Positions 8,337 through 56,665 of a stretch of 64,000 nucleotides of DNA are shown piece after piece. Within the stretch, counting starts at the first letter, position 1; each line of letters opens with the position of its first letter. The notes beneath the pieces are model-generated. The model did not search any database and had not been told where the DNA came from. It saw only the letters and a program-made list of their open reading frames with translations. Origin of the DNA: Candidatus Poribacteria bacterium (GTDB lineage Bacteria; Poribacteria; WGA-4E; WGA-3G); the NCBI GenBank assembly GCA_963665235.2, contig CAXXLX010000001.1, positions 2,496,001 to 2,560,000 of the forward strand. The letters are read 5' to 3'. The position numbers and the translations under genes were made by a program.

Positions 8337-8613
8337 TACCATTTCTAATTGAAAATGTCTCTTTCTTGTAGCATAAACTTCCAGTTTGTGCTTTCTTGTA
8401 GCATAAACTTCCAGTTTGTGCTTTCTTGTAGCATAAACTTCCAGTTTGTGCTTTCTTGTAGCATAAACTTCCAGTTTGTGCTTTCTTGTAGCATAAACTT
8501 CCAGTTTGTGCTTTCTTGTAGTCTTGCTTTCTTGTAGCATAAACTTCCGTTTCTTCCGTTCTCCGTTTCATTTCTAACAACCGGTAATGATAGAATAATT
8601 AATAAAAATGGTA
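8337..8613. mobile_element. MITE-like family A, copy 1, with an internal tandem GTAG-REP array (five full 30-bp units plus partials)
   Basis: Ends TACCATTT/AAATGGTA; unit GTAGCATAAACTTCCAGTTTGTGCT is a hairpin; the same flanks recur at 16578 and 34360. Confidence 0.75.
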
Positions 8614-12449: not shown

Positions 12450-12991
12450 TTCTATAAAGATACTGCCCCGCTGGGGCTAGGTTGTGTTGTGTTTTTGTGT
12501 TTTCTATAAAGATACCGCCCCGCTGGGGCTAGCTTGTCTGGCACTTGTGCTTCTATAAAGATACCGCCCCGCTGGGGCTAGCTTGTCTGGCACTTGTGCT
12601 TCTATAAAGATACCGCCCCGCTGGGGCTAGCTTGTCTGGCACTTGTGCTTCTATAAAGATACCGCCCCGCTGGGGCTAGGTTGTGTTGTGTTTTTGTGTT
12701 TTCTATAAAGATACCGCCCCGCTGGGGCTAGCTTGTCTGGCCCTTGTGCTTCTATGATACCGCCCCGCTGGGGCTAGCTTGTCTGGCACTTGTGCTTCTA
12801 TAAAGATACCGCCCCGCTGGGGCTAGGTTGTGTTGTGTTTTTGTGTTTTCTATAAAGATACCGCCCCGCTGGGGCTAGCTTGTCTGGCACTTGTGCTTCT
12901 ATAAAGATACCGCCCCGCTGGGGCTGGGGCTGGGGCTAGCTTGTGTTGTGTTTTTGTGTTTTCTATAAAGATACCGCCCCGCTGGGGCTAG
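12450..12991 (+). repeat. Tandem array of 11 palindromic REP-like units with two recurring linkers
   Basis: Unit TTCTATAAAGATACCGCCCCGCTGGGGCTAG; linkers GTTGTGTTGTGTTTTTGTGTT or CTTGTCTGGCACTTGTGC. Confidence 0.9.
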
Positions 12992-13035
12992 CTTGTGTTT
13001 GTCTGGTGTTCACATTAAACATGTCGCCCCGATAG

Positions 13036-13571
13036 CTAGTCCCGTAGGGACTTGTGATATATCTATAGAAAGATGTTTCCCCCCCTAGTCCCGTATTGTC
13101 TGGCGTTCACATTAAACATGTCGCTCCGATACGCCTAGTCCCGTAGGGACGATATATTTATAGAAGCAGATGTTGACCCCTAAACATTAAACCGCTAGTC
13201 CCGTAGGGCGATATATTTATAGAAGCAGATGTTTCCCCAACCCCTAGTCCCGTATTGTCTGGCGTTCACATTAAACATGTCGCTCCCGATACGCACGCTA
13301 CCTAGTCCCGTAGGGACGATATATTTATAGAAGCAGATGTTTCGACAACCGCTAGTCCCGTAGGGACGATATATTTATAGAAGCAGATGTTTCAGAGACA
13401 ACCTTATGCTAGTCCCGTATTGTCTGGCGTTCATATGAAACAACCCGCTAGTCCCGTAGGGACGATATATTTATAGAAGCAGATGTTTCCCCAACCCCTA
13501 GTCCCGTATTGTCTGGCGTTCACATTAAACATGTCGCCCCGATAGTCCCGTAGGGACGATATATTTATAGA
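13036..13571 (-). repeat. Degenerate array of related REP-like units in opposite orientation
   Basis: CTAGTCCCGTAGGGACGATATATTTATAGAA (reverse complement resembles the first array) about 7 times, interleaved with TTGTCTGGCGTTCACATTAAACATGTCGC modules. Confidence 0.85.
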
Positions 13572-16577: not shown

Positions 16578-16693
16578 TACCATTTTTATTAATTACTCTA
16601 TCATTACCGGTTGTTAGAAATGAAACGGAGAACGGAAGACCCAAACTGGAAGTTTATGCTACAAGAAAGAGACATTTTCAATTAGAAATGGTA
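16578..16693. mobile_element. MITE-like family A, copy 2 (inverted, single REP unit)
   Basis: Reverse complement of the 8337-8613 flanks with one internal unit. Confidence 0.75.
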
Positions 16694-23974: not shown

Positions 23975-24580
23975 AACGTGAGCTTGATAATAAATATCCG
24001 TTTGCTCTAAACCTTTTTCATCGCGAAAAAAGCGGTATACTTGTAGCATAAACTTCCTAGTTTGTGCTGTTTTTTGCTAAAACTACCACAGAACGCTCTA
24101 GGTCAAAACTTTTTTCAAACTTGCATTATGTTACATCTTTTTTGTCTGAATGCACGTCGCATTTGGGCGAGTACGCCGCAAATCGCGGATTATCGCGGAG
24201 GACACGGATTTCGCGGATTTTAAGCTGTGTATGCCTCGAGGTTTTGTGATTAAGAGGGGGTGTTTTTTCAGTAGTGACGGACAGTTGGGTTGTCCGATGC
24301 CTTTCAATTCTTCTTTATCACGCGAGCTTGATAATAAATGCCCGTTCGCGCCAAACGCTTTTCATGGTAAAAAAAAGCGGTATACTTGTAGCATAAACTT
24401 CCTAGTTTGTGCCGTCTTCGCTTGTAGCATAAACTTCCTAGTTTGTGCTGTCTTCGCTTGTAGCATAAACTTCCTAGTTTGTGCCGTCTTCGCTTGTAGC
24501 ATAAACTTCCTAGTTTGTGCCGTCTTTTGATAAAACTACCGCAGAACACCGCAGGTGAAAACTTTTTTCAAACTCACGTC
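23975..24580. mobile_element. Two MITE-like family D copies carrying 1 and 4 GTAG-REP units (36-bp period)
   Basis: Ends ACG(T/C)GAGCTTGATAATAAA ... TTTTTCAAACTCACGT; the right end also occurs near 13590 and 46850. Confidence 0.65.
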
Positions 24581-24869
24581 TTTATACATAAAATTCTCTT
24601 TATACATAAAATTCTTCTAAAGTGAACGTGTTAGTCTACTGCCCGTGAAAATTTCTGAATGTATCACGAATTTTCATGGCTATAGATTCAATGGTTCCGA
24701 TATCAAGGGTCATTATATCAGTCTCTTCCAACTCAGTCCTGACGCTTTTTGACATCATGCCGTAGATGAAATTATGAGATGTGAACCAGTTATCTATTTC
24801 CATCTCAGGAATTTCGCGTTCAACTTCTACTACCCTCATCAAAATCTTCGGTGTGGAGACCCCGTTGCT

Positions 24870-25973
24870 TTAGCACGGGGAGGAAACACCGCTCCTATAT
24901 TGAAAGTTCAAGCGTGTGAGGACTTGAAAATCTGTGCGTTTCGCACCCGTTGTGAGGCGTTGACCTTCTAAGCTATAGATAGAAAACACCCCTTTTGCAT
25001 TAATACCCGTAATAGGATGTCCTCGGTGGGACCTCGGACGTGTGATCCCGTGTTTGCTGTGCTTTATCACCGTGTTTTTCACAAGTCCGTTGCCTAACAC
25101 AGTCCCGCCATATCTTGACCGTATTCCGCCCTTTGCTGGTTGTTCTCGGTGCAAGTTACGCCTTGCTACGGGTATCGGGGATATGCAAAACACGGCTGTA
25201 TTGTCGGGTTTGAGTGCCATCGCTTTCTTTGTGTCACCATTGACAACCGAATGTGCCATCACCCAACTATCAACGCAGTGTGCATAGAAGTCATCAGAGA
25301 GTTTGTCTTGGCTCTTCTCTAATCCTAATGCCTTCCTCCGCGCGGAAGTCCACCTGCCTTTATAGCAAAACACATTTCCAACGCCATAGCGTGCTATCAA
25401 CTCAGAGACAAACCAGCGTTTACCAACCTCCAACGGACTAAAAGCTGTGTTCCATCGCTTCTTACCCGGTTTTGTTCTTGCCTTGATGTCCTCCACACAG
25501 ATTTTTGTGACAGGATACAAGTCAGACAACCAATCCAGGATGCGGAGTTTCCAATCCCAACGGGCCCGGGTGCCTGCGGGGAGTTTCTGTCTGTTCGCAC
25601 CTTTGTTGGTGCGGTTCTTGCGGTTGGGACACTTCCGAGAACGTCCGAGGTCCCACCGAGGACATCCTCTCCCTCTGCGGAGTTCACGTCTTTTCTCAAC
25701 CTTCTTTCCAACTTTGTTATGTGCATCTGCCTGCACGTTCAGATACGTATGCGTCGCAGATTTGACGGTAAATCCCTCTTTCTTACTTCCAGGATCCACA
25801 CCGACAACAATGTCTTGTGTTTCTCTATCACTCGGTTCTTTGTTGAGACGGACACAATAGACACCGTTGTTCCAATAAGGTGTTGCTTCACCGCGTTTGA
25901 CAAGTTTCCTTGCACGTGCAGCATGCATCGGCATCAGCTGTTGTCCGTCGTTTGTTTTGACTGGCACAAACAT
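24870..25973 (-). CDS. isrB: IsrB-like RNA-guided nickase (RRXRR/PLMP, split RuvC, no HNH)
   Basis: QLMPMHAARARKL; RuvC-I VGVDPGSK; Arg-rich bridge helix; RuvC-II VEDI; RuvC-III HCVDS; 367 aa with no HNH motif. Confidence 0.85.
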   Translation of the reverse strand: MFVPVKTNDGQQLMPMHAARARKLVKRGEATPYWNNGVYCVRLNKEPSDRETQDIVVGVDPGSKKEGFTVKSATHTYLNVQADAHNKVGKKVEKRRELRRGRGCPRWDLGRSRKCPNRKNRTNKGANRQKLPAGTRARWDWKLRILDWLSDLYPVTKICVEDIKARTKPGKKRWNTAFSPLEVGKRWFVSELIARYGVGNVFCYKGRWTSARRKALGLEKSQDKLSDDFYAHCVDSWVMAHSVVNGDTKKAMALKPDNTAVFCISPIPVARRNLHREQPAKGGIRSRYGGTVLGNGLVKNTVIKHSKHGITRPRSHRGHPITGINAKGVFSIYSLEGQRLTTGAKRTDFQVLTRLNFQYRSGVSSPC

Positions 25974-25979
25974 AAGTTT

Positions 25980-26249
25980 GTTTTCTCCTTACGGAAGTAA
26001 AACGGATGTGAGAGAAAACGGATGACCGTAGGTCATTTGTTTTCCCTCTTTCCTTCCGTCGGGTATATATTGCCCCATCCAGATCAGGGGTTCGTAGTGG
26101 AATCAGACTTGGGGAGCATCCGAAACATACTTTAGGCTGCCACACCCAGAACCCCCGATATATTACTGTAGAAAGTAGTTTAACTTGTGGATTGACTGCT
26201 TGGCAGGCAGTTCGCACAAGCCCCCACGCTTTAGCGGGGGGTTACTGAC
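25980..26249 (-). ncRNA. Putative omega-RNA (HEARO-like) scaffold
   Basis: About 270 nt between the element end and isrB; contains the GTCA-led hairpin and GGATGCTCCCCAAGTCTG. 3' boundary approximate. Confidence 0.75.
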
Positions 26250-26596
26250 TCTAACCATGTATTCATCAAGTTTCATGGGTAGAGCCTGCATGAGTGTAAA
26301 GTGATAGCGTATGTATTTGATTTCGACTAATGACCAATCTATATCAAAACCTTTTGATTCTTCTTTCAAAACTTCTTCAAATTTTTCCTCAAACTTAACT
26401 TCCATGATTACCTCCCCTTATTCATTATTTTGCTGCTAACCCGCCTACTACGTGGACAGTTTTTACCGTGCAGCACTGGCATCCGTCGCCAGCAGTCGCG
26501 CTTAATTAACGCGATAATTTAATTTTACACTAGGAGTGTAACACATATTTTGCCACTTGTCAAGTGAAAATAGGTTCGCTCCACCCTTGCGCCGGG

Positions 26597-34033: not shown

Positions 34034-34359
34034 GATATTTTACCTCCATTATTGTAGTTCCCCGTGTTGTTTTTCTTCGGAAACGATATTCTCTATTTCT
34101 TCTGCGATTTCTTGGACTTAGGAGAACGGTGTCCAGTATTCGGGCAAACAACCCGCTCCTAGAATTTTGCACAAAACACAGTCATGGTTTCCATTATTAT
34201 AATCCGAGTTGCTACCTATAAGTTTTTAGACATGGACACTCCGTCTTTAGGCAAAAAATGATTATAATTCGCCAATATCTTGTGCCGTAAACTTCCAGTT
34301 TGCGACCTTATGGCACAAACTAGGAAGTTTGTGCTACTATGTGGCAACTTAGGTTATTA

Positions 34360-34539
34360 TACCATTTCTAATTGAAAATGTCTCTTTATTGTAGCATAAA
34401 CTTCCAGTTTGTGCTCTTTATTGTAGCATAAACTTCCAGTTTGTGCTCTTTATTGTAGCATAAACTTCCAGTTTGTGTCTTCCGTTCTCCGTTTGATTTC
34501 TAACAACCGGTAATGATAGAATAATTAATAAAAATGGTA
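34360..34539. mobile_element. MITE-like family A, copy 3 (three 32-bp REP units)
   Basis: Same ends and body as 8337-8613; an inverted REP pair lies just left (about 34282-34337). Confidence 0.75.
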
Positions 34540-46912: not shown

Positions 46913-49900
46913 GTGAAATACTGGGTGATTGCACCAATGGAGTCTACGACTCCAGAAGAGCTGTTCACACATGCGTGGAATTACGACATCCAGAACGGCA
47001 CACTCGCTGTAGGGTGGCAGACCACGCAACCGAAATTGCAAGACATTTCTCAAATCGCCAATTTTGAAGACTTTTTAACCGAAATTGCAGCAGCTGACCC
47101 CGGATGGGGGGCCCGCGCGCCGAAAATGATATGGGACTTTCACGACACTATTGAGGAAGGCGATATCATCTTTGCAAGACGCGGTTTAAATCAGATACTC
47201 GGAATCGGGCTCGTGACCCAAAAAGCGTCCTACGATGCAGAAAAAGGCTACGAACGTATTGGCACTTCCGGGCCTCTCTCGGAAAGCCTTCAACAGCACT
47301 TTAGACCCCGGTTTATAGAAATCGCATGGCAGGTTACCGGAAGTTTTCCCGCTAAATTGGCATGGCGACGGACAGTTCAAGAAATTACTGATGTCCAATG
47401 CAGCCAGCTCATCACGGAACTCCAAGCGCATCTCACTGATGCACAATATCAAGAGATACAAGCAGCACTTACTGAGGAAACGACACCTTCACACGTAGAA
47501 GAACCAGCTCCACAGGAGGAGGCTACCCCCGCTACTAGCGAGGAAAGCGTGGCGGAAGACCAAAAGCTGCCTCCACTTGAATCTACAGATGCACCATTCC
47601 GTAGCTGGGAACAGTCCTCGGAAACGGCGGACCAAAAAGAGGTACCCGCTGAACCAACAACGATTCCAGCCGACACACCAAAGACTACGGTCCCAATACG
47701 CGACGTGCCGACACCTAAACCCGATACGTCAGCAGAGCCTAAAAAACCTAATTTTTATATCGGAATTGACCTCGGGACAACTAATTCGGTGATGGGATGG
47801 GGCACTATCAACCCACAGACAAATCAGATTGAACCGAAGATTGTTGAAATCAACATGATGATAGAACGCGGGGGGATAGGCAAACGTGAACTATTGCCCT
47901 CTTGTATCTATTTCAAAGAGGGGAGCCGTCCAATCGTCGGTGAGTATGCAAAAACGATGATCGGCCGGCAGACAGCACGCGTAGTCAAGTCTATCAAAAG
48001 CGAGATAGGCTCTCAAAAATATCACGATTTTGACAATACGCGCTATACCCCAGCAGAGATTTCAGCACAAATTCTCACACACTTAGCAACAAGCGCAAAA
48101 TCACACTTCGGGTTTATTCCTGACGATGTCGTTATCACGGTCCCCGCATCGTTTGATTCCGATATGCGTAACGCAACCATTGAAGCAGCAAAACTCACAG
48201 GTTTCCGAACGACAGAAGATGATGGCAGCCCACGCAACATCTTACTCGATGAACCGCGTGCTGCACTTTACGATTTTATCAACCGACAGAATAAAGGTGA
48301 AATTCCTGAGACGCTTATCAATTTTCACGAACCCAAACTGGTACTCGTTTTCGATCTCGGGGGCGGAACCCTTGACGTATCCCTACATCGGGTTTCGTAT
48401 CAACAGACGGAACACGGGTTGAATATCGAAGATTTAGCTATCTCCCGCTATACGAGAATTGGTGGAGATGATTTTGACCAGAAACTTGCTGACCACTTCC
48501 TCGCAGCTTATGAAAACAAAATTCCTGAAAATCTAGATGACTTCCAGAAAAACCTCCTCAGCAGCACTTTCCGAGAATACGCTGAACAGGCAAAAATCGA
48601 TATCAGCAGTGAAATCGAAAACGGAAAACTTCTGGGATATCTGGAGCTTGATACCGTCGAGACAACGATTATCCAAACGCCTTTCGAAAATCAGGTCTTC
48701 CAATATGACCTCTCCTTAACCGAATACGAGGAAATTGTAGAACCGCTGCTCGGTAATAAGCTCTCTTTGGAAGATGTGGAAAAGGTTGACACCCTGCAAT
48801 TTAACGATGATAACATCATTTATCCGATTCTGGATGTGTTGAAAAAGGCACAACTCAAAATTGGTGAATACCCGAAAGTTGATGCTGTCCTCTTAAACGG
48901 TGGAATGACCAAACTTCATACAATTCAGAATCGGTTGGAAACCTTTTTCGGATTTCCACCTATCGCGGCTGGCGACCCAGATAAAGCTGTTGCGCGCGGT
49001 GCAGTTGTTTATCACTACGACCTGCACCGAGGCATAAAACCCTCCCGGATTTTGAATGACACAATCGGCATCGAAATCACCGGCGGCACGGTCAAACACC
49101 TAGTGGAAGCTGGGACTATCCTCCCGTTATCGCAACCGAAACCTATCGAAGGATTACAGGTAAGCGTCGACGCGCATTACTTAAAACTCCCGTTCTATGT
49201 CGGAAGTCGAACAGACACGAAACCACCTAATCGACGTATCCTTGAGCGAAGAGTGAAATTCGAAAGCCAAAGACCTTTTCTGAAAGATGAACCTATCTTT
49301 ATCCAAGTACAGGTCGATGAAAGAGGTATTTTGAATGTTGAGGGATGGTCCAAAGATAATCCGGCTGACAAATTTACCGTTACCGTAGATGCGGCACAGT
49401 CGCCCGCAGAAACAACGCTCCTGAGACCCGACCAGGCAACCCCTGCGATTGGCACCGTTTCCACGGAATCGACACCTACACGGCAGGTCACCGCCCTCAA
49501 CTTGGACATCAGAGAAGAACTCATCGAAATGCGGAAGCATTATAGCAATTACATGCGAACACACCGCAAGGATGTAATTATGGCGCAGATTAAAAGGCAA
49601 AGCACTAAGGTTGCACGCGCTGAGAATGCCCAAGAGTTCATCAAACCTTTAATCGATACGGTCCAAACTGTCAATAATTTTGGGCGCTCGCGAATCATGA
49701 TTTTGCTCGGGGAACTCGCAGCACGGTGTGCAACGCCTGACCAACTTTATGATATTTGCGACGCTGCGACCTTCCTGAGCAACCCGATAGAGTTGAAATA
49801 TAAGCACCCAAAAGTTATCAACAGTGTTGTCAGATATGCTGTTGAAGCTATTGGAAAAACACAACTCTCGCTTGCTGAATCGCACCTCATTCAACTGCTG

Positions 49901-50425
49901 AATCAGGAGAAGGCGACCTCTATCCAATCAAGCGTTATCTATTCAATGGGGAAATGTTGTCATAGCCTCAACGCTATTGAACACTTAAAACCGCTGATTC
50001 AGGCGGCGAGTGATTCAACGCGTATCGCTGTCAATTGGACCTTCGGAAAAATCGGCAGCCGAGAACGGAAAAATCCCATTCCCATTAACCAGATGGACTC
50101 GGTTATCAGCGCACTTATCAAACAGCTGAAGACTGAACGACATGTCGATGTAAAACGGAACGGTATTTATGCCCTCGGCGAAATTTGTGATCGCCGCGAA
50201 TGCACAACCGATAGTGTAGGGGAAGAAACAGCAGCGTCTGTTATAACCCTCCTTGAAACTTTCACTAAACCTAGCAACTTCGGGACAAGCCTATCCGATT
50301 TAAGCTCCATGCAACAGTCGAAAACACTTCAGCGGTTCGCAGGTGTCTCTACACAGATGATAAAAGGTATCGAACTATCGCACGAACAACAATCCAGCCT
50401 ATTGACAATTCGGGAAGAAAATTAA
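46913..50425 (+). CDS. Multidomain Hsp70-family ATPase: McrB/Mrr-N-like domain, linker, Hsp70 NBD, HEAT-like repeats
   Basis: IGIDLGTTNS, ITVPASF, DEPRAA, FDLGGGTLD, GGDDFD, NGGMTK, PDKAVARGA; helical C-terminus (AVEAIGK, YALGEI). Confidence 0.88.
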   Translation: MKYWVIAPMESTTPEELFTHAWNYDIQNGTLAVGWQTTQPKLQDISQIANFEDFLTEIAAADPGWGARAPKMIWDFHDTIEEGDIIFARRGLNQILGIGLVTQKASYDAEKGYERIGTSGPLSESLQQHFRPRFIEIAWQVTGSFPAKLAWRRTVQEITDVQCSQLITELQAHLTDAQYQEIQAALTEETTPSHVEEPAPQEEATPATSEESVAEDQKLPPLESTDAPFRSWEQSSETADQKEVPAEPTTIPADTPKTTVPIRDVPTPKPDTSAEPKKPNFYIGIDLGTTNSVMGWGTINPQTNQIEPKIVEINMMIERGGIGKRELLPSCIYFKEGSRPIVGEYAKTMIGRQTARVVKSIKSEIGSQKYHDFDNTRYTPAEISAQILTHLATSAKSHFGFIPDDVVITVPASFDSDMRNATIEAAKLTGFRTTEDDGSPRNILLDEPRAALYDFINRQNKGEIPETLINFHEPKLVLVFDLGGGTLDVSLHRVSYQQTEHGLNIEDLAISRYTRIGGDDFDQKLADHFLAAYENKIPENLDDFQKNLLSSTFREYAEQAKIDISSEIENGKLLGYLELDTVETTIIQTPFENQVFQYDLSLTEYEEIVEPLLGNKLSLEDVEKVDTLQFNDDNIIYPILDVLKKAQLKIGEYPKVDAVLLNGGMTKLHTIQNRLETFFGFPPIAAGDPDKAVARGAVVYHYDLHRGIKPSRILNDTIGIEITGGTVKHLVEAGTILPLSQPKPIEGLQVSVDAHYLKLPFYVGSRTDTKPPNRRILERRVKFESQRPFLKDEPIFIQVQVDERGILNVEGWSKDNPADKFTVTVDAAQSPAETTLLRPDQATPAIGTVSTESTPTRQVTALNLDIREELIEMRKHYSNYMRTHRKDVIMAQIKRQSTKVARAENAQEFIKPLIDTVQTVNNFGRSRIMILLGELAARCATPDQLYDICDAATFLSNPIELKYKHPKVINSVVRYAVEAIGKTQLSLAESHLIQLLNQEKATSIQSSVIYSMGKCCHSLNAIEHLKPLIQAASDSTRIAVNWTFGKIGSRERKNPIPINQMDSVISALIKQLKTERHVDVKRNGIYALGEICDRRECTTDSVGEETAASVITLLETFTKPSNFGTSLSDLSSMQQSKTLQRFAGVSTQMIKGIELSHEQQSSLLTIREEN

Positions 50426-52322: not shown

Positions 52323-52416
52323 CATAACCCTTGTTGCACGCTTCCTGACGTTTCAAAAAACTTTCGATAACAAACGTTTGTGAGGCGTGCACGCACAAGG
52401 GCGAAACTTCATTTTG

Positions 52417-52754
52417 TCGCGTGCGAAGCACGCTCCTACCGAGGATATAAACGGATTTTCGCGTGCGAAGCACGCTCCTACCGAGGATATAAACGGATTT
52501 TCGCGTGCGAAGCACGCTCCTACCGAGGATATAAACGGATTTTCGCGTGCGAAGCACGCTCCTACCGAGGATATAAACGGATTTTCGCGTGCGAAGCACG
52601 CTCCTACCGAGGATATAAACGGATTTTCGCGTGCGAAGCACGCTCCTACCGAGGATATAAACGGATTTTCGCGTGCGAAGCACGCTCCTACCGAGGATAT
52701 AAACGGATTTTCGCGTGCGAAGCACGCTCCTACCGAGGATATGAACGGATTTTT
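52417..52754 (-). repeat. Tandem array of eight 42-bp GTAG-REP units
   Basis: Minus-strand unit contains GTAGGAGCGTGCTTCGCACGCGA; a lone relative sits at 17051-17075. Confidence 0.92.
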
Positions 52755-54664
52755 CACCAGTGCTTGAAGGAATACATCCGCTGTTCTAGGAATAATCCCA
52801 AAGTCGCCCAGATGCTGCCCATGACAAATTCACCGAGCATTGCTCCGAAAAATAGGGGCAACGCGCGACGATACGCACCAATCCCACCGTGCCGAACGAG
52901 TAGGGATTTTATCGCCCACGCCAAAAATACAGGAAACCAGAGCCGACCGAAATTCCAATTGCCCGATAGCGGATAGGCGAGCGGGTGCAGCTGCCACCAG
53001 ATAAACCGCATCCGCATAAAAAGCGTAATGAATGTGAGAAACATGCCGAACCCGAAGAAGCTGAGCTGTCGCCACTCCGTATCACTCGGCAATGTTAACC
53101 AACGTTGGAGGTCACTAAATGCTTCCTGTCCGCGCCAGGTCCCCAGGCTTCCGTGCCTATACCCCGCATGCAGGAATGCCGTGAACCCGATAAGCAGTCC
53201 GATGACGGTTGCCCCCCACATGACCCAGAGCAGCTGCTGTGTGTTGATTGCCCCCTTTTCAGCCAATTTGAATCCCTCTAGTTGATTCGGCATCGGTTGT
53301 GAGCGGTAGTTGCGGGTAAACCCGTATAAGAAGGCGAATCCTGTTAGTGTCGGTGCGCCAATTTTTCTGGAGCCGAAAAGCGAAGTTAAGAAAAAGCTGG
53401 GGCCGGCACGGTAAAAATCCTGCGTCGGTGTGCCAAGTTCCGCCCGCATCCGTGTGAAGGCTAAGACTAAAATGAAGTGGATGCTAAAAAATCCTATAAT
53501 CCCCCACCACGACATGCCCGCCTTGAGGCAAAATCCGAAAATAACGGCAATGCTGAGCAGAAAACCGAGGACCGCGCCGCGATATCCCATCGGTTCGCCT
53601 TCGCCGGTAGCAGCGTTAACGTGTAACCCTAAAACGTTGCGTGCAACCTGCCACAAGTGTTTACGCGTTATCCAGAGCGCGAAGAAACAGAGCGCGAAAT
53701 ATGCCCCAAGCGATTGCATGTCAATATGAGGGTATCCCGGCACCTGTTCTAAGCCTGTAACCGCGCCAAAAACCCGTTGTCCCTTCCAGAAAAGATAGAA
53801 TAGCCAGCAAGAAAGCGATAGGTCCAGCGGCATCAAAAAACCTATACCGATAGCGTAAGGGTTCAGATGGATAGGCGTTGACCCGATAGCGTTGAACGGT
53901 TTCTCCGTAAACAGCTGCCCGATGTCGTGCCGAATAGGAATGTTCGGCAGATATGGATAGAGAAAACTCATGCCGTTGAGCAGGTCAAGTCCAAATCCGA
54001 TAGCAAAGCCGACCCAGAGAAGTCGGTTGCGATAGAAAGGCGCGCCTTTTGTCATCTCAAACGGAAGTAGGATAATCGGATAACTCAATTTTTCATGTGC
54101 AATCCACTGTTTACGCAGGATGACACTGAGCATAAGCATAGAGAAGGCAAGGGCAGCGAAGAAGAACGTCCACGATAGCACAGGTGTAAGCCACGCGCGG
54201 ATATGTGTCGCTTCAAATAGCGTTGAAGTGCCCTCATAATATCCGATTAAGGCGCGTCGGTTCATAACCGCAATCCAGTCGGGAATGTAATGGAAGAAGA
54301 GCGATTGCCATTCATTCTCCGGCGTAGCGAACCAGCTGGCGTGTCCAAGGATACACATTGTCGCCTGCAAAAGGTCATGCCCACAAACGACGCATGCAAG
54401 CGTCACCATAAGGTATACTGTCAACATTTCTCCTTGCGTCAGCTGCCATTTCGGAAAATATTGTGTTAAGAGTAGGTTAAAAATCGCGACGAGGAATAGG
54501 GTGAAGACAGCATTGAAGAAGATTGCCATCGTAGTGGGGTACTGTGTTGTCCAGACCGTCTCTGTCTGAACGACGAGGTAGATATTAAGTGGAAGCGACA
54601 GCAGGCCGAGCAATATAGCTCGCCATGTGATATTCTCAGTTGGGGAATGCGGTGGCTTCTCCAT
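52754..54664 (-). CDS. Polytopic membrane protein (DUF6785-like putative peptide transporter)
   Basis: TWRAILLG, W...EKLSYPI, RMRAELG, WWQLHPLAY; many TM helices. Confidence 0.75.
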   Translation of the reverse strand: MEKPPHSPTENITWRAILLGLLSLPLNIYLVVQTETVWTTQYPTTMAIFFNAVFTLFLVAIFNLLLTQYFPKWQLTQGEMLTVYLMVTLACVVCGHDLLQATMCILGHASWFATPENEWQSLFFHYIPDWIAVMNRRALIGYYEGTSTLFEATHIRAWLTPVLSWTFFFAALAFSMLMLSVILRKQWIAHEKLSYPIILLPFEMTKGAPFYRNRLLWVGFAIGFGLDLLNGMSFLYPYLPNIPIRHDIGQLFTEKPFNAIGSTPIHLNPYAIGIGFLMPLDLSLSCWLFYLFWKGQRVFGAVTGLEQVPGYPHIDMQSLGAYFALCFFALWITRKHLWQVARNVLGLHVNAATGEGEPMGYRGAVLGFLLSIAVIFGFCLKAGMSWWGIIGFFSIHFILVLAFTRMRAELGTPTQDFYRAGPSFFLTSLFGSRKIGAPTLTGFAFLYGFTRNYRSQPMPNQLEGFKLAEKGAINTQQLLWVMWGATVIGLLIGFTAFLHAGYRHGSLGTWRGQEAFSDLQRWLTLPSDTEWRQLSFFGFGMFLTFITLFMRMRFIWWQLHPLAYPLSGNWNFGRLWFPVFLAWAIKSLLVRHGGIGAYRRALPLFFGAMLGEFVMGSIWATLGLFLEQRMYSFKHW

Positions 54665-54904: not shown

Positions 54905-56665
54905 ATGCAACACGTTTTTATATCCTATATGCCCGAAAATACGGCTATCATTGATAGGCTTCGCGAAGAACTAACCTCACGCGGCATAGAAGTCTGGATT
55001 GACCGAAATGAGATTAAACCGGAATCTCACTGGAAAGATGCCATTCGGGAAACTATTCGTGAAGGGACTTTTTTTATCGCGTGTTTCTCAAAGGAATATA
55101 GTAAACGCGATAAGACCGACATGAATCAGGAACTGACAATCGCAATTGATGAGCTGCGTCAGCAACCTACTAACAGAGCGTGGTTTATTCCTGTCAAGTT
55201 GAACAGCTGTAAGATACCTAATCGTAACATTGGTAGAGGTGAAACCCTCAACGCTCTTCACGATGTTAAACTCTATAAGGATTGGAATGCTGGTATTCAA
55301 AGCATAATTAAGGTTATTCAATCCGAATCGACGGAACCGACAAGAAATGAGAGCCCCAACTCAAAATCTTCGGAGGACTTTGTAGCTCAAGACAGTGTGG
55401 GCACAAAGAGTTCTGAAGTTAATAGGGACCGAAACAGAAAATTGACTGATTCGCTATTTCAACAAGTTGACGCGATGATGAAGCGCGGCGAAATAGACCC
55501 AGCAGTTACGGATTATGACACAGCGATTGCCTTAGAACCAAAAGATGCTAAAATCTACTATAGTAGCGGTAATGCTTACCGCAATGAAGGCGCGTTTGAA
55601 CTTGCTCCTGCGGATTATAATGAGGTAATAGAGTCGGATATAGAAAACGCCGGTTTCTACAACAGTCGCGGTGTTATCTACAGCAACGAAGGCGAAACAG
55701 ATAAGGCCATCAGAGATTTCAACAAGGCAATAGAACTGAATCCAAAATTTACCGAGGCTTATTACAATCGTGGCAATGTTTACGCAAACACAAGCGATTT
55801 TGATAACGCCATCAGCGACTATACCGAAGTAATAAAACGCAACCCAAATGATGCCCAGGCATATAACAATCGTGGCAATGTTTACGCAAACACAAGCGAT
55901 TTTGATAACGCCATCAGCGACTATACCGAAGCAATAAAACGCAACCCAAATGATGCCTAGGCATATTCCGGCCGGGGTTTTACTTACTACGATATAAATG
56001 AGTTTGATAACGCCATAGATGACTATACGGAAGCAATAAAACGCAACCCAAATGATGCCGAGATTTATTACAATCGGGGTCTTGCTTACGCCGAAACAGG
56101 TAATTTTGACAACGCCATCAACGACTATACGCAAGTAATAAAACGCAACCCAAATGATGCCGGTGCCTATTACGTCCGGGGCAATGCTTACTTGCACAAA
56201 GGTGAGTTTGATAACGCCATAGATGACTATACCGAAGCAATAAAACGCAACCCAAATGATGCCGATGCCTATTACGTCCGGGGCACTGCTTACCTCGCAA
56301 AAGGTGAGTTTGATAACGCCATAGATGACTATACCGAAGCAATAAAACGTAAAAAAGATTATGCCGGTGCCTATTACGTCCGGGGCACTGCTTACGTTGC
56401 CAAAGGTGATGTGTATAATGCCATCAGCGACTATAATACAACTATAAAATACAAACCCGATTTTGCCGGAGTGTATGTTGTCCGTGGGTTAGTCTGCTTA
56501 CATTTAAGGAAATGGAAAAGAGCAAAATCAGATCTGATGAAAGCCAGAAACCTGGGCGTGGATATCGGTGCTGCATTCCATGAGGACTACGCGAGCGTTG
56601 AAGATTTTGAGCAGGAAATGGGTATCCAGTTGCCAGAAGGCATCGCTGCACTATTGACTTCGTAG
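54905..56665 (+). pseudogene. TIR-domain + TPR protein interrupted by a single TAG at 55958-55960
   Basis: VFISY...VWID...QEL TIR; 34-aa TPRs; the frame stays open after TAG into ORF 56192-56665. Confidence 0.85.

Follow-up and report, generated by a model that had tools for sequence, protein, structure and literature searches.

A probable non-autonomous IsrB element inserted between two codons of a small conserved gene in a Candidatus Poribacteria genome

The window analysed here is a stretch of 64,000 nucleotides from a Candidatus Poribacteria bacterium (assembly GCA_963665235.2, contig CAXXLX010000001.1, positions 2,496,001 to 2,560,000 of the forward strand), and the locus of interest within it is a small gene split by an insertion that encodes an IsrB protein preceded by the scaffold of an omega-RNA. 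All positions given below are those of the window. On the minus strand, the N-terminal half of the host gene (26250..26405, 52 aa ending in DEYMVR) is followed by the insertion (24840..26249, 1,410 bp), and this by the C-terminal half (24636..24839, 67 aa plus the stop codon, starting with MRVV); the halves were delimited by translation and alignment with homologues, and the insertion, of the IS200/IS605 type (ISC1-like), by boundary conservation and family profiles. The insertion has the same orientation as the host gene and lies downstream of a promoter-like sequence of the sigma-70 type (26535..26563, minus strand; TTGACA-17-TACACT, the second hexamer being preceded by TG and 10 of 12 bases agreeing with the consensus), whose function is presumed from the consensus only. 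The evidence presented here argues that the insertion is very probably a non-autonomous IS200/IS605-family IsrB (ISC1) element, which entered the host gene at the boundary of codons 52 and 53 and duplicated no target sequence.

The two halves of the host gene, when joined, give a protein of 119 aa. Searches with the C-terminal half yielded 77 homologues, of which 33 came from the search for longer proteins (many of them being exactly 119 aa) and 44 from the search at near length (82-118 aa). All of the 76 homologues with an alignment to the N-terminal half show the pattern Y-x-V-R/[MILV]-R-V at the junction, with neither gaps nor duplicated residues, and 70 of the 76 have Met at position 53; in the 77th, P0195, the N-terminus is truncated, but the sequence is also continuous across the junction. 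Since all 77 are continuous at this point, the proposed excision yields an ordinary gene of a conserved family, one that has no match in Pfam or NCBIfam. An independent exhaustive search with the N-terminal half recovered the same kind of protein, including P0130, also present in the search with the C-terminal half, and the two halves of the window gene are 88% and 79% identical to the intact homologue P0122. An apparent offset of -2 between the halves, seen in 31 homologues (44 being exact), was discarded as an artefact of ungapped alignment due to a downstream deletion of 2 aa. An earlier reading of this locus, made from the letters and open reading frames alone (hereafter the sequence-only reading), had predicted an in-frame empty site of 119 aa and had pointed to empty alleles in relatives; at the protein level, the 77 intact homologues agree with it and join at the predicted codon boundary. 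As separate observations, an 18-nt unit repeated twice lies directly 3' of the host gene stop codon (24579-24615), and an intact distant homologue of the host gene (42-50% identical) was found in locus L006 (7061-7420), around 2 kb downstream of another IsrB element.

Both junctions can be read to the base. At the start of the element, on the minus strand, the host sequence ...GAATACATGGTTAGA, with its last base at 26250, is followed by GTCAGTAACC, with the first base of the element at 26249, and at its finish ...GAAGATTTTG, with the last base at 24840, is followed by ATGAGGGTAG, with the host resuming at 24839. The junctions and the coordinates of the element proposed earlier (26249..24840, minus strand) read exactly so in the sequence. 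The top strand of the transposon corresponds to the plus strand of the window, position 24840 being the left end and position 26249 the right one. For comparison, a set of 80 related loci was used, all of them from metagenome-assembled genomes of Poribacteria. The tetranucleotide GTCA is the exact onset of homology in 79 of the 80, and the 20 nt located 5' of it hold at most 0.39 bits per position, with 74 of 75 flanks being distinct. At the other end, conservation takes in a hairpin overlapping the stop codon and extends up to ...GAAGAnnnG, followed by ATGA, the flanks being unrelated farther out, and the G preceding ATGA is kept in 75 of 76 ends. A junction moved one base leftward also reads V-R-M in the protein; this placement is disfavoured because the base before GTCA varies among the relatives and because of the conservation of that G (75 of 76), and assigning the G to the host would break the reading frame.

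The ends of the element are those of a hairpin-bounded transposon. Folded as single-stranded DNA of the window plus strand, an imperfect subterminal hairpin with a bulged stem and a TTTA loop (26220..26242, unstranded; z = -2.0) finishes 7 nt inside the right end, this being also the first stem-loop of the omega-RNA, where helices 1-2 covary, and another with a bulged T and a TTTA loop (24860..24880, unstranded; z = -3.0), overlapping the isrB stop codon, begins 20 nt inside the left end. No terminal inverted repeats were found at the ends of the element and there is no target-site duplication, the junction being seamless against the 77 host-gene homologues; for IS200/IS605 elements, hairpin ends and the lack of target duplication are described in passages of PMC13565253. 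Family profiles match the window once each, with E=4.9e-51 for the omega-RNA and E=1.8e-20 for the left end. The size of the element, 1,410 bp, compares with around 1,266 bp in relatives, and one related genome holds 11 copies of 1,265-1,267 nt that are 97.1-99.8% identical and have the same termini and unrelated flanks. Such near-identical copies in unrelated contexts support that the family is mobile with exactly these boundaries. Two full IsrB elements were also observed within around 3 kb and in the same orientation in locus L065 (3791-5056 and 6952-8216).

The isrB open reading frame (24870..25973, minus strand), assigned from its translation, Pfam and structure and sequence matches, encodes 367 aa plus the stop codon. 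Its only Pfam domain is RRXRR, at residues 3-165 (E=4.8e-26), so that the N-terminal PLMP domain is present and no HNH domain was found in the protein. The NCBIfam model guided_IscB matches residues 5-164 only, with 70.7 bits against a cutoff of 175, and chains of IscB align only with the N-terminal 110-160 residues, approximately. By sequence, the best solved relative is DtIsrB (Protein Data Bank 8dmb, E=4.4e-22), with which the N-termini align, and 8dmb was also the best fold match (E=4e-20, template modelling (TM) scores of 0.63/0.70), ahead of the IscBs, for a model computed with AlphaFold2 from an alignment of 109 sequences, which has a mean predicted local distance difference test (pLDDT) score of 71.4. 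The C-terminal third, which holds the putative domain interacting with the target-adjacent motif (TAM), is only moderately confident in the model, with pLDDT below 50 at residues 316-322, and the TM scores are for the match of the whole chain. The 109-sequence alignment shows no variation at M14, P15, D60, E161 or D235, and at least 90% of its sequences have L13 and H232; in an alignment of 14 sequences, D60, E161, H232 and D235 are all without variation. These RuvC residues align with the VDPG, TED and H..D motifs of 8dmb, which we take to be the catalytic ones. Homologues are abundant, with 3,382 proteins found at E≤0.001; those named among the best 120 belong to Candidatus Poribacteria, and the length in these 120 is mostly 339-343 aa, 342 aa being that of a typical relative. 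Thus, the RRXRR/PLMP N-terminus, the conserved RuvC residues and the missing HNH support the assignment of the predicted protein as IsrB, in agreement with the identity and the intact RuvC D/E/D triad that the sequence-only reading had proposed.

Immediately upstream of the open reading frame lies the omega-RNA scaffold, which runs through a hairpin containing the Shine-Dalgarno sequence to the isrB start codon (25974..26249, minus strand), with a core at 26249..~26051, as delimited by HEARO, the family profile and covariation. A homologous region of around 210 nt is found directly 5' of the open reading frame in 79 of the 80 related loci. For the structure, an alignment of 59 sequences was used (the window and 58 distinct Poribacteria relatives), in which RNAalifold predicted 32 pairs, 24 of them with compensatory changes, and two more helices were added by eye, giving a structure of 43 pairs. 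Across the alignment, 93.9% of the cells are paired, a value inflated because the structure is partly derived from the same sequences, compared with 29-39% when the partners are slid; 31 of the 43 pairs change on both sides, and none of 500 shuffles reached the observed values. The window RNA retains 40 of the 43 family pairs, and of the three that are lost, two are due to the way in which an extra hairpin, described below, is aligned. The structured omega-RNA begins at the first base of the element, 26249.

The Rfam model HEARO (RF02033) aligns over its full length (model positions 1-211) with 26249..26063, with a score of 27.1 bits (E=0.0078), the gathering score being 83, and no Rfam model attains its gathering score anywhere in the window. 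When seven related loci were tested, four scored 28-31 bits and the other three gave no match at E≤0.1. Because the relatives also score low, these values point to a divergent HEARO-like class of omega-RNA rather than to a failed fold. HEARO and the window RNA have in common an alignment that starts where the element starts, the CUAAAG loop of the first hairpin and the location directly upstream of the open reading frame, and they differ, besides the score, in that the 5' strand is not paired as in the consensus, a conserved CTTGTG/CACAAG stem being present instead in the window family. With respect to the sequence-only reading, which had named HEARO as a check, a full-length match starting at 26249 and a covarying fold were obtained, but with a score far under the gathering one. 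As an independent observation, locus L056 contains a miniature derivative of 338 nt (2117-2454), flanked by GTCA... and ...G/ATGA, in which the omega-RNA, the initial codons of isrB and the left end are retained and there is no open reading frame; it would need IsrB in trans.

The variable flank and the sharp onset of conservation place a putative guide-encoding sequence in the 20 nt directly 5' of the scaffold (26250..26269, minus strand), its length being taken by analogy with DtIsrB. On the opposite side, a candidate TAM, ATGA (24836..24839, minus strand; TCAT in the top strand), abuts the left end, its ATG being codon M53 of the host. Among 76 ends, the four bases past the left end are ATGA in 60, ATGG in 6, ATAA in 6, ATAG in 2 and others in 2, and the base after this motif is A in 49 of the 76. 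As ATGA in the window belongs to the host codons M53 and R54, it is a target motif and not a part of the element. The recurrence of ATGA makes a guide at 26269..26250 with ATGA as the TAM a sound reading of the sequence. Both had been put forward in the sequence-only reading: the proposed guide falls where the flanks vary from copy to copy (74 of 75 distinct), and the proposed TAM recurs and fits the published NTGA.

According to passages of PMC9581776, IsrB proteins are of around 350 aa and lack HNH, act with an omega-RNA of around 300 nt that carries a 20-nt guide at its 5' end, and nick the non-target strand beside a 5'-NTGA-3' TAM, TTGA being used at 60 °C, and the Shine-Dalgarno sequence lies inside the terminal hairpin of the omega-RNA. 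The window element resembles the DtIsrB system of Desulfovirgula thermocuniculi described there in the PLMP/RRXRR N-terminus, the split RuvC without HNH and the putative C-terminal TAM-interacting domain, in an omega-RNA that lies directly 5' of the open reading frame, would carry the guide at its 5' end and contains the Shine-Dalgarno sequence within its terminal hairpin, and in a candidate TAM of the NTGA type, which ATGA fits. By contrast, the window IsrB is only around 25% identical to DtIsrB, the scaffold is of 262 nt in the latter and of around 210 nt in the Poribacteria family, and the window copy is of 367 aa with two insertions of 8 aa and an extra hairpin of around 67 nt in the Shine-Dalgarno stem.

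A second point of comparison is the IscB element ISGst5 of Geobacillus stearothermophilus. In passages of 10.1101/2023.03.14.532601, TnpA and IscB share a motif abutting the left end (TTCAT for GstIscB), two positions distinguish the motif of the right end from the TAM, excision leaves a donor joint that is cut by the nuclease, IscB elements are biased to the orientation of the upstream gene, and iscB is rarely near tnpA (around 1.5%). The window element and ISGst5 would have in common being non-autonomous IS200/IS605 elements, a guide from the flank outside the right end, a TAM abutting the left end (TTCAT is ATGAA in the sense of the nuclease, and the window has ATGA, followed by A in the proportion of ends given above), a right-end motif two positions off the TAM, the orientation of the upstream gene and a model based on targeting of the donor joint. 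They differ in that GstIscB has HNH and produces double-strand breaks, IsrB being a nickase, and in that the cognate TnpA of the window element was not found among the window open reading frames or in a crude screen of the loci.

On these grounds, a mode of mobilisation can be proposed by analogy. Transcription from the host promoter through the last 20 nt, approximately, of host sequence into the scaffold would give an omega-RNA with the guide 26269..26250; IsrB and this omega-RNA would recognise the empty allele, in which the guide match is followed by ATGA, and nick the non-target strand; and the nick would favour re-copying of the element after its excision by a Y1 transposase (TnpA) encoded elsewhere. 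In the occupied site the guide match is followed by GTCA, and it would be protected from IsrB because GTCA differs from ATGA at two positions. The use of the guide, the nicking of the empty allele and the action of TnpA in trans are thus suggested by the systems described above, and relatives present in multiple near-identical copies imply the action of some transposase on the family.

The window copy differs from its relatives by three lineage-specific insertions, one in the Shine-Dalgarno hairpin and two in isrB, which were missed in the sequence-only reading and which bear on the activity of this copy. The first is a palindromic insertion of around 67 nt in the terminal Shine-Dalgarno hairpin of the omega-RNA (25994..26060, minus strand), absent from all aligned relatives, with a folding energy of -40.3 kcal/mol and z = -5.07; it strongly extends the existing Shine-Dalgarno stem and forms terminator-like hairpins on both strands, and a blastn-short search found no further copy of it in the window. 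The other two are in-frame inserts of 24 nt, the same sequence in opposite orientations: GCPRWDLG (aa 104-111), which with a native ACGT makes arm 1 (25641..25668, minus strand), and PRSHRGHP (aa 313-320), which beside another native ACGT makes arm 2 (25014..25041, minus strand), in the region of the putative TAM-interacting domain. Each insert is, in its own orientation, immediately 5' of an ACGT that the relatives already have there, and the arms form a perfect 28-nt inverted repeat inside isrB, with 599 nt between them and none expected by chance. They pair with each other in both the minimum-energy and the centroid folds of the isrB mRNA, in such a way that the 28-bp duplex dominates the fold.

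Several observations weigh against the proposal of a mobile IsrB element mobilised in trans. In addition to the low HEARO scores of the window and its relatives, the family profiles found no second copy of the element in the window, and the isrB paralogues of the same genome are just 73% and 66% identical, with no sign of a recent burst. No Y1 transposase was found among the 57 window open reading frames of at least 90 aa, nor among the three candidates of a crude HUH screen of the 80 loci, which looked for an HxH motif in open reading frames of 105-200 aa and could miss genes. At the DNA level, the empty site is deduced from protein homologues. Concerning the activity of this copy, the extra terminator-like hairpin of around 67 nt sits in the Shine-Dalgarno stem, and shortening of SL7/8, the equivalent stem-loops, reduced the nicking by DtIsrB according to passages of PMC9581776. 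Both insertions of 8 aa fall in low-confidence loops of the model, and the closest relative, P0002, 97% identical, diverges, loses the frame and ends early near the second insertion.

Part of these data would also be expected if the element were a correctly identified IsrB element and yet a dead or dying copy, fixed in the disrupted gene, in which the insertions had switched off the nuclease, its expression or both, an alternative that we regard as possible, though the less probable one. The absence of the three insertions from all 80 related loci, the dominance of the arm duplex in the predicted mRNA fold, the terminator-like hairpins between scaffold and open reading frame, the single copy in the window with no TnpA among its open reading frames and the loss of frame of the sister sequence P0002 near arm 2 all fit with it. 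However, the frame is open over 367 codons with every invariant residue of the family retained, both peptide insertions are in frame, free of stops and in predicted loops, the omega-RNA keeps most of its family pairs, the insertion of around 67 nt lengthens an existing stem and breaks none, and the halves of the host gene are undecayed, as their identity to P0122 indicates. Judged from its sequence, the chances that the window copy is active appear about evenly balanced, and a non-autonomous IsrB element remains our preferred reading of the locus.

The 24-nt insert was not found in any of the 80 related loci (allowing up to four substitutions), and in the window only the two arms were detected with up to three mismatches, with nothing further by blastn-short. 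In a regex scan of the best 120 of the 3,382 homologues, the first insert was found only in P0001 and P0002, and the second only in P0001, P0007 and P0031; the scan left 13 sequences unparsed at site 1 and 38 at site 2, whose lengths of 329-353 aa argue against an insert. P0007 and P0031 are encoded on the same 4.36-Mb contig as the window isrB and are the paralogues with 73% and 66% identity, and they belong to another indel subclade, supporting that shared descent does not explain the second insert. Its source may possibly be a site-specific insertion or gene conversion. A derivation from the ends or the rest of the element itself was rejected, as 73 of 300 shuffles equalled or surpassed the score of the local alignment, which was therefore not significant.

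Palindromic elements of Rickettsia are in-frame selfish insertions in genes. The window insert shares with them being a short repeated sequence in frame within a coding gene that it leaves unbroken, and differs in that it is of 24 nt and was seen in two copies, both in isrB and each beside ACGT, with no sign of a genome-wide spread in the window and the 80 loci. Alternatively, the 28-nt inverted repeat could be a functional device, such as an RNase III site, a translational brake on the isrB mRNA or a hairpin preventing single-strand transposition. This is improbable in our view: even if the perfect complementarity, not expected by chance, the position of both copies against a native ACGT in the same relative orientation, the pairing of the arms in both predicted folds and the presence of the arm-2 insert in two same-genome paralogues of another subclade speak for it, no copy exists elsewhere in the window or the 80 loci, the insert is not similar to the rest of the element, and gene conversion plus one template switch could yield the repeat without any function.

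The same codon boundary appears to be filled in a second genome. P0155, a protein of 74 aa, is an orthologous N-terminal half with 39 of 52 residues identical to those of the window, and after ...YTVR it continues as the translated 5' end of an omega-RNA of a different subfamily, with 21 of 22 residues matching the frame-1 translation of locus L028. This fusion supports that IsrB elements of different subfamilies sit at the same boundary in two lineages. L028 itself was rejected as the carrier of the insertion of P0155, since its translated flanks show a different context. The identity of each filled allele to intact alleles of other genomes is 90-94%, compared with only 75% between the two filled ones. 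As possible causes of the shared boundary we consider homing, a favoured target, or an old insertion in which sequence of another subfamily has taken the place of the interior.

It is therefore conceivable, though rather unlikely, that the occupied site is old or recurrent, either through omega-RNA-guided homing across Poribacteria lineages or through an ancient insertion with precise losses elsewhere. The join of the N-terminal half of P0155 to an omega-RNA of another subfamily and the closer identity of the filled alleles to intact ones than to each other would be explained in this way, but only two filled alleles stand against 77 clusters of intact homologues, P0155 is represented by its protein sequence, gene callers may miss split halves and so undercount the filled alleles, and a mere preference for targets with ATGA and an in-frame ATG could account for the coincidence. 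A bolder reading, to which we give little credence, would have a tiny site-specific insertion or templated copying acting on isrB (24 nt, in both orientations, beside ACGT, and also at the same site in two paralogues), with the 28-bp duplex as a brake on the nuclease, and, separately, omega-RNA-guided homing across lineages as the meaning of two subfamilies at one boundary.

Other features of the window were also recorded. A family of repeats scattered between genes, with the core TTGTAGCATAAACTTCC(T)AGTTTGTG, forms tandem arrays with periods of 30, 36 and 32 nt at 8361-8521, 24385-24526 and 34382-34481, one of the arrays being just downstream of the interrupted gene, and single units of the core repeat are found at 24040-24076, 34312-34337, 16648-16665 and 8531-8548. 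At 52417-52753, a 42-nt unit is present in 8 tandem copies with a 99% match and a GC-rich hairpin per unit, overlapping the open reading frame 52380-52973, and a long array of units of around 49 nt, each with a CCGCCCCGCTGGGGC hairpin, occupies 12450-13174. Two proteins encoded in the window are a TIR-domain protein fused to TPR repeats (54905-55957) and a protein of 1,170 aa with an Hsp70-like ATPase region (46913-50422).

The element belongs to a well-described class and adds nothing new biologically to the OMEGA model, and among the best-matching papers of the library searched none linking Poribacteria with IscB, IsrB, HEARO or RRXRR was found. Its value is that of a clean natural case, in which the guide of an IsrB, its TAM, both ends and the empty site are all readable from the sequence and checkable against 77 intact alleles. 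Its oddities, namely the pair of 24-nt inserts and the recurrence of the target site, merit a further look. At the level of the family, Poribacteria hold a large group of IsrB elements with a compact protein of 342 aa, predicted to be a nickase, and a scaffold of around 210 nt, which could interest those who seek small RNA-guided nickases.

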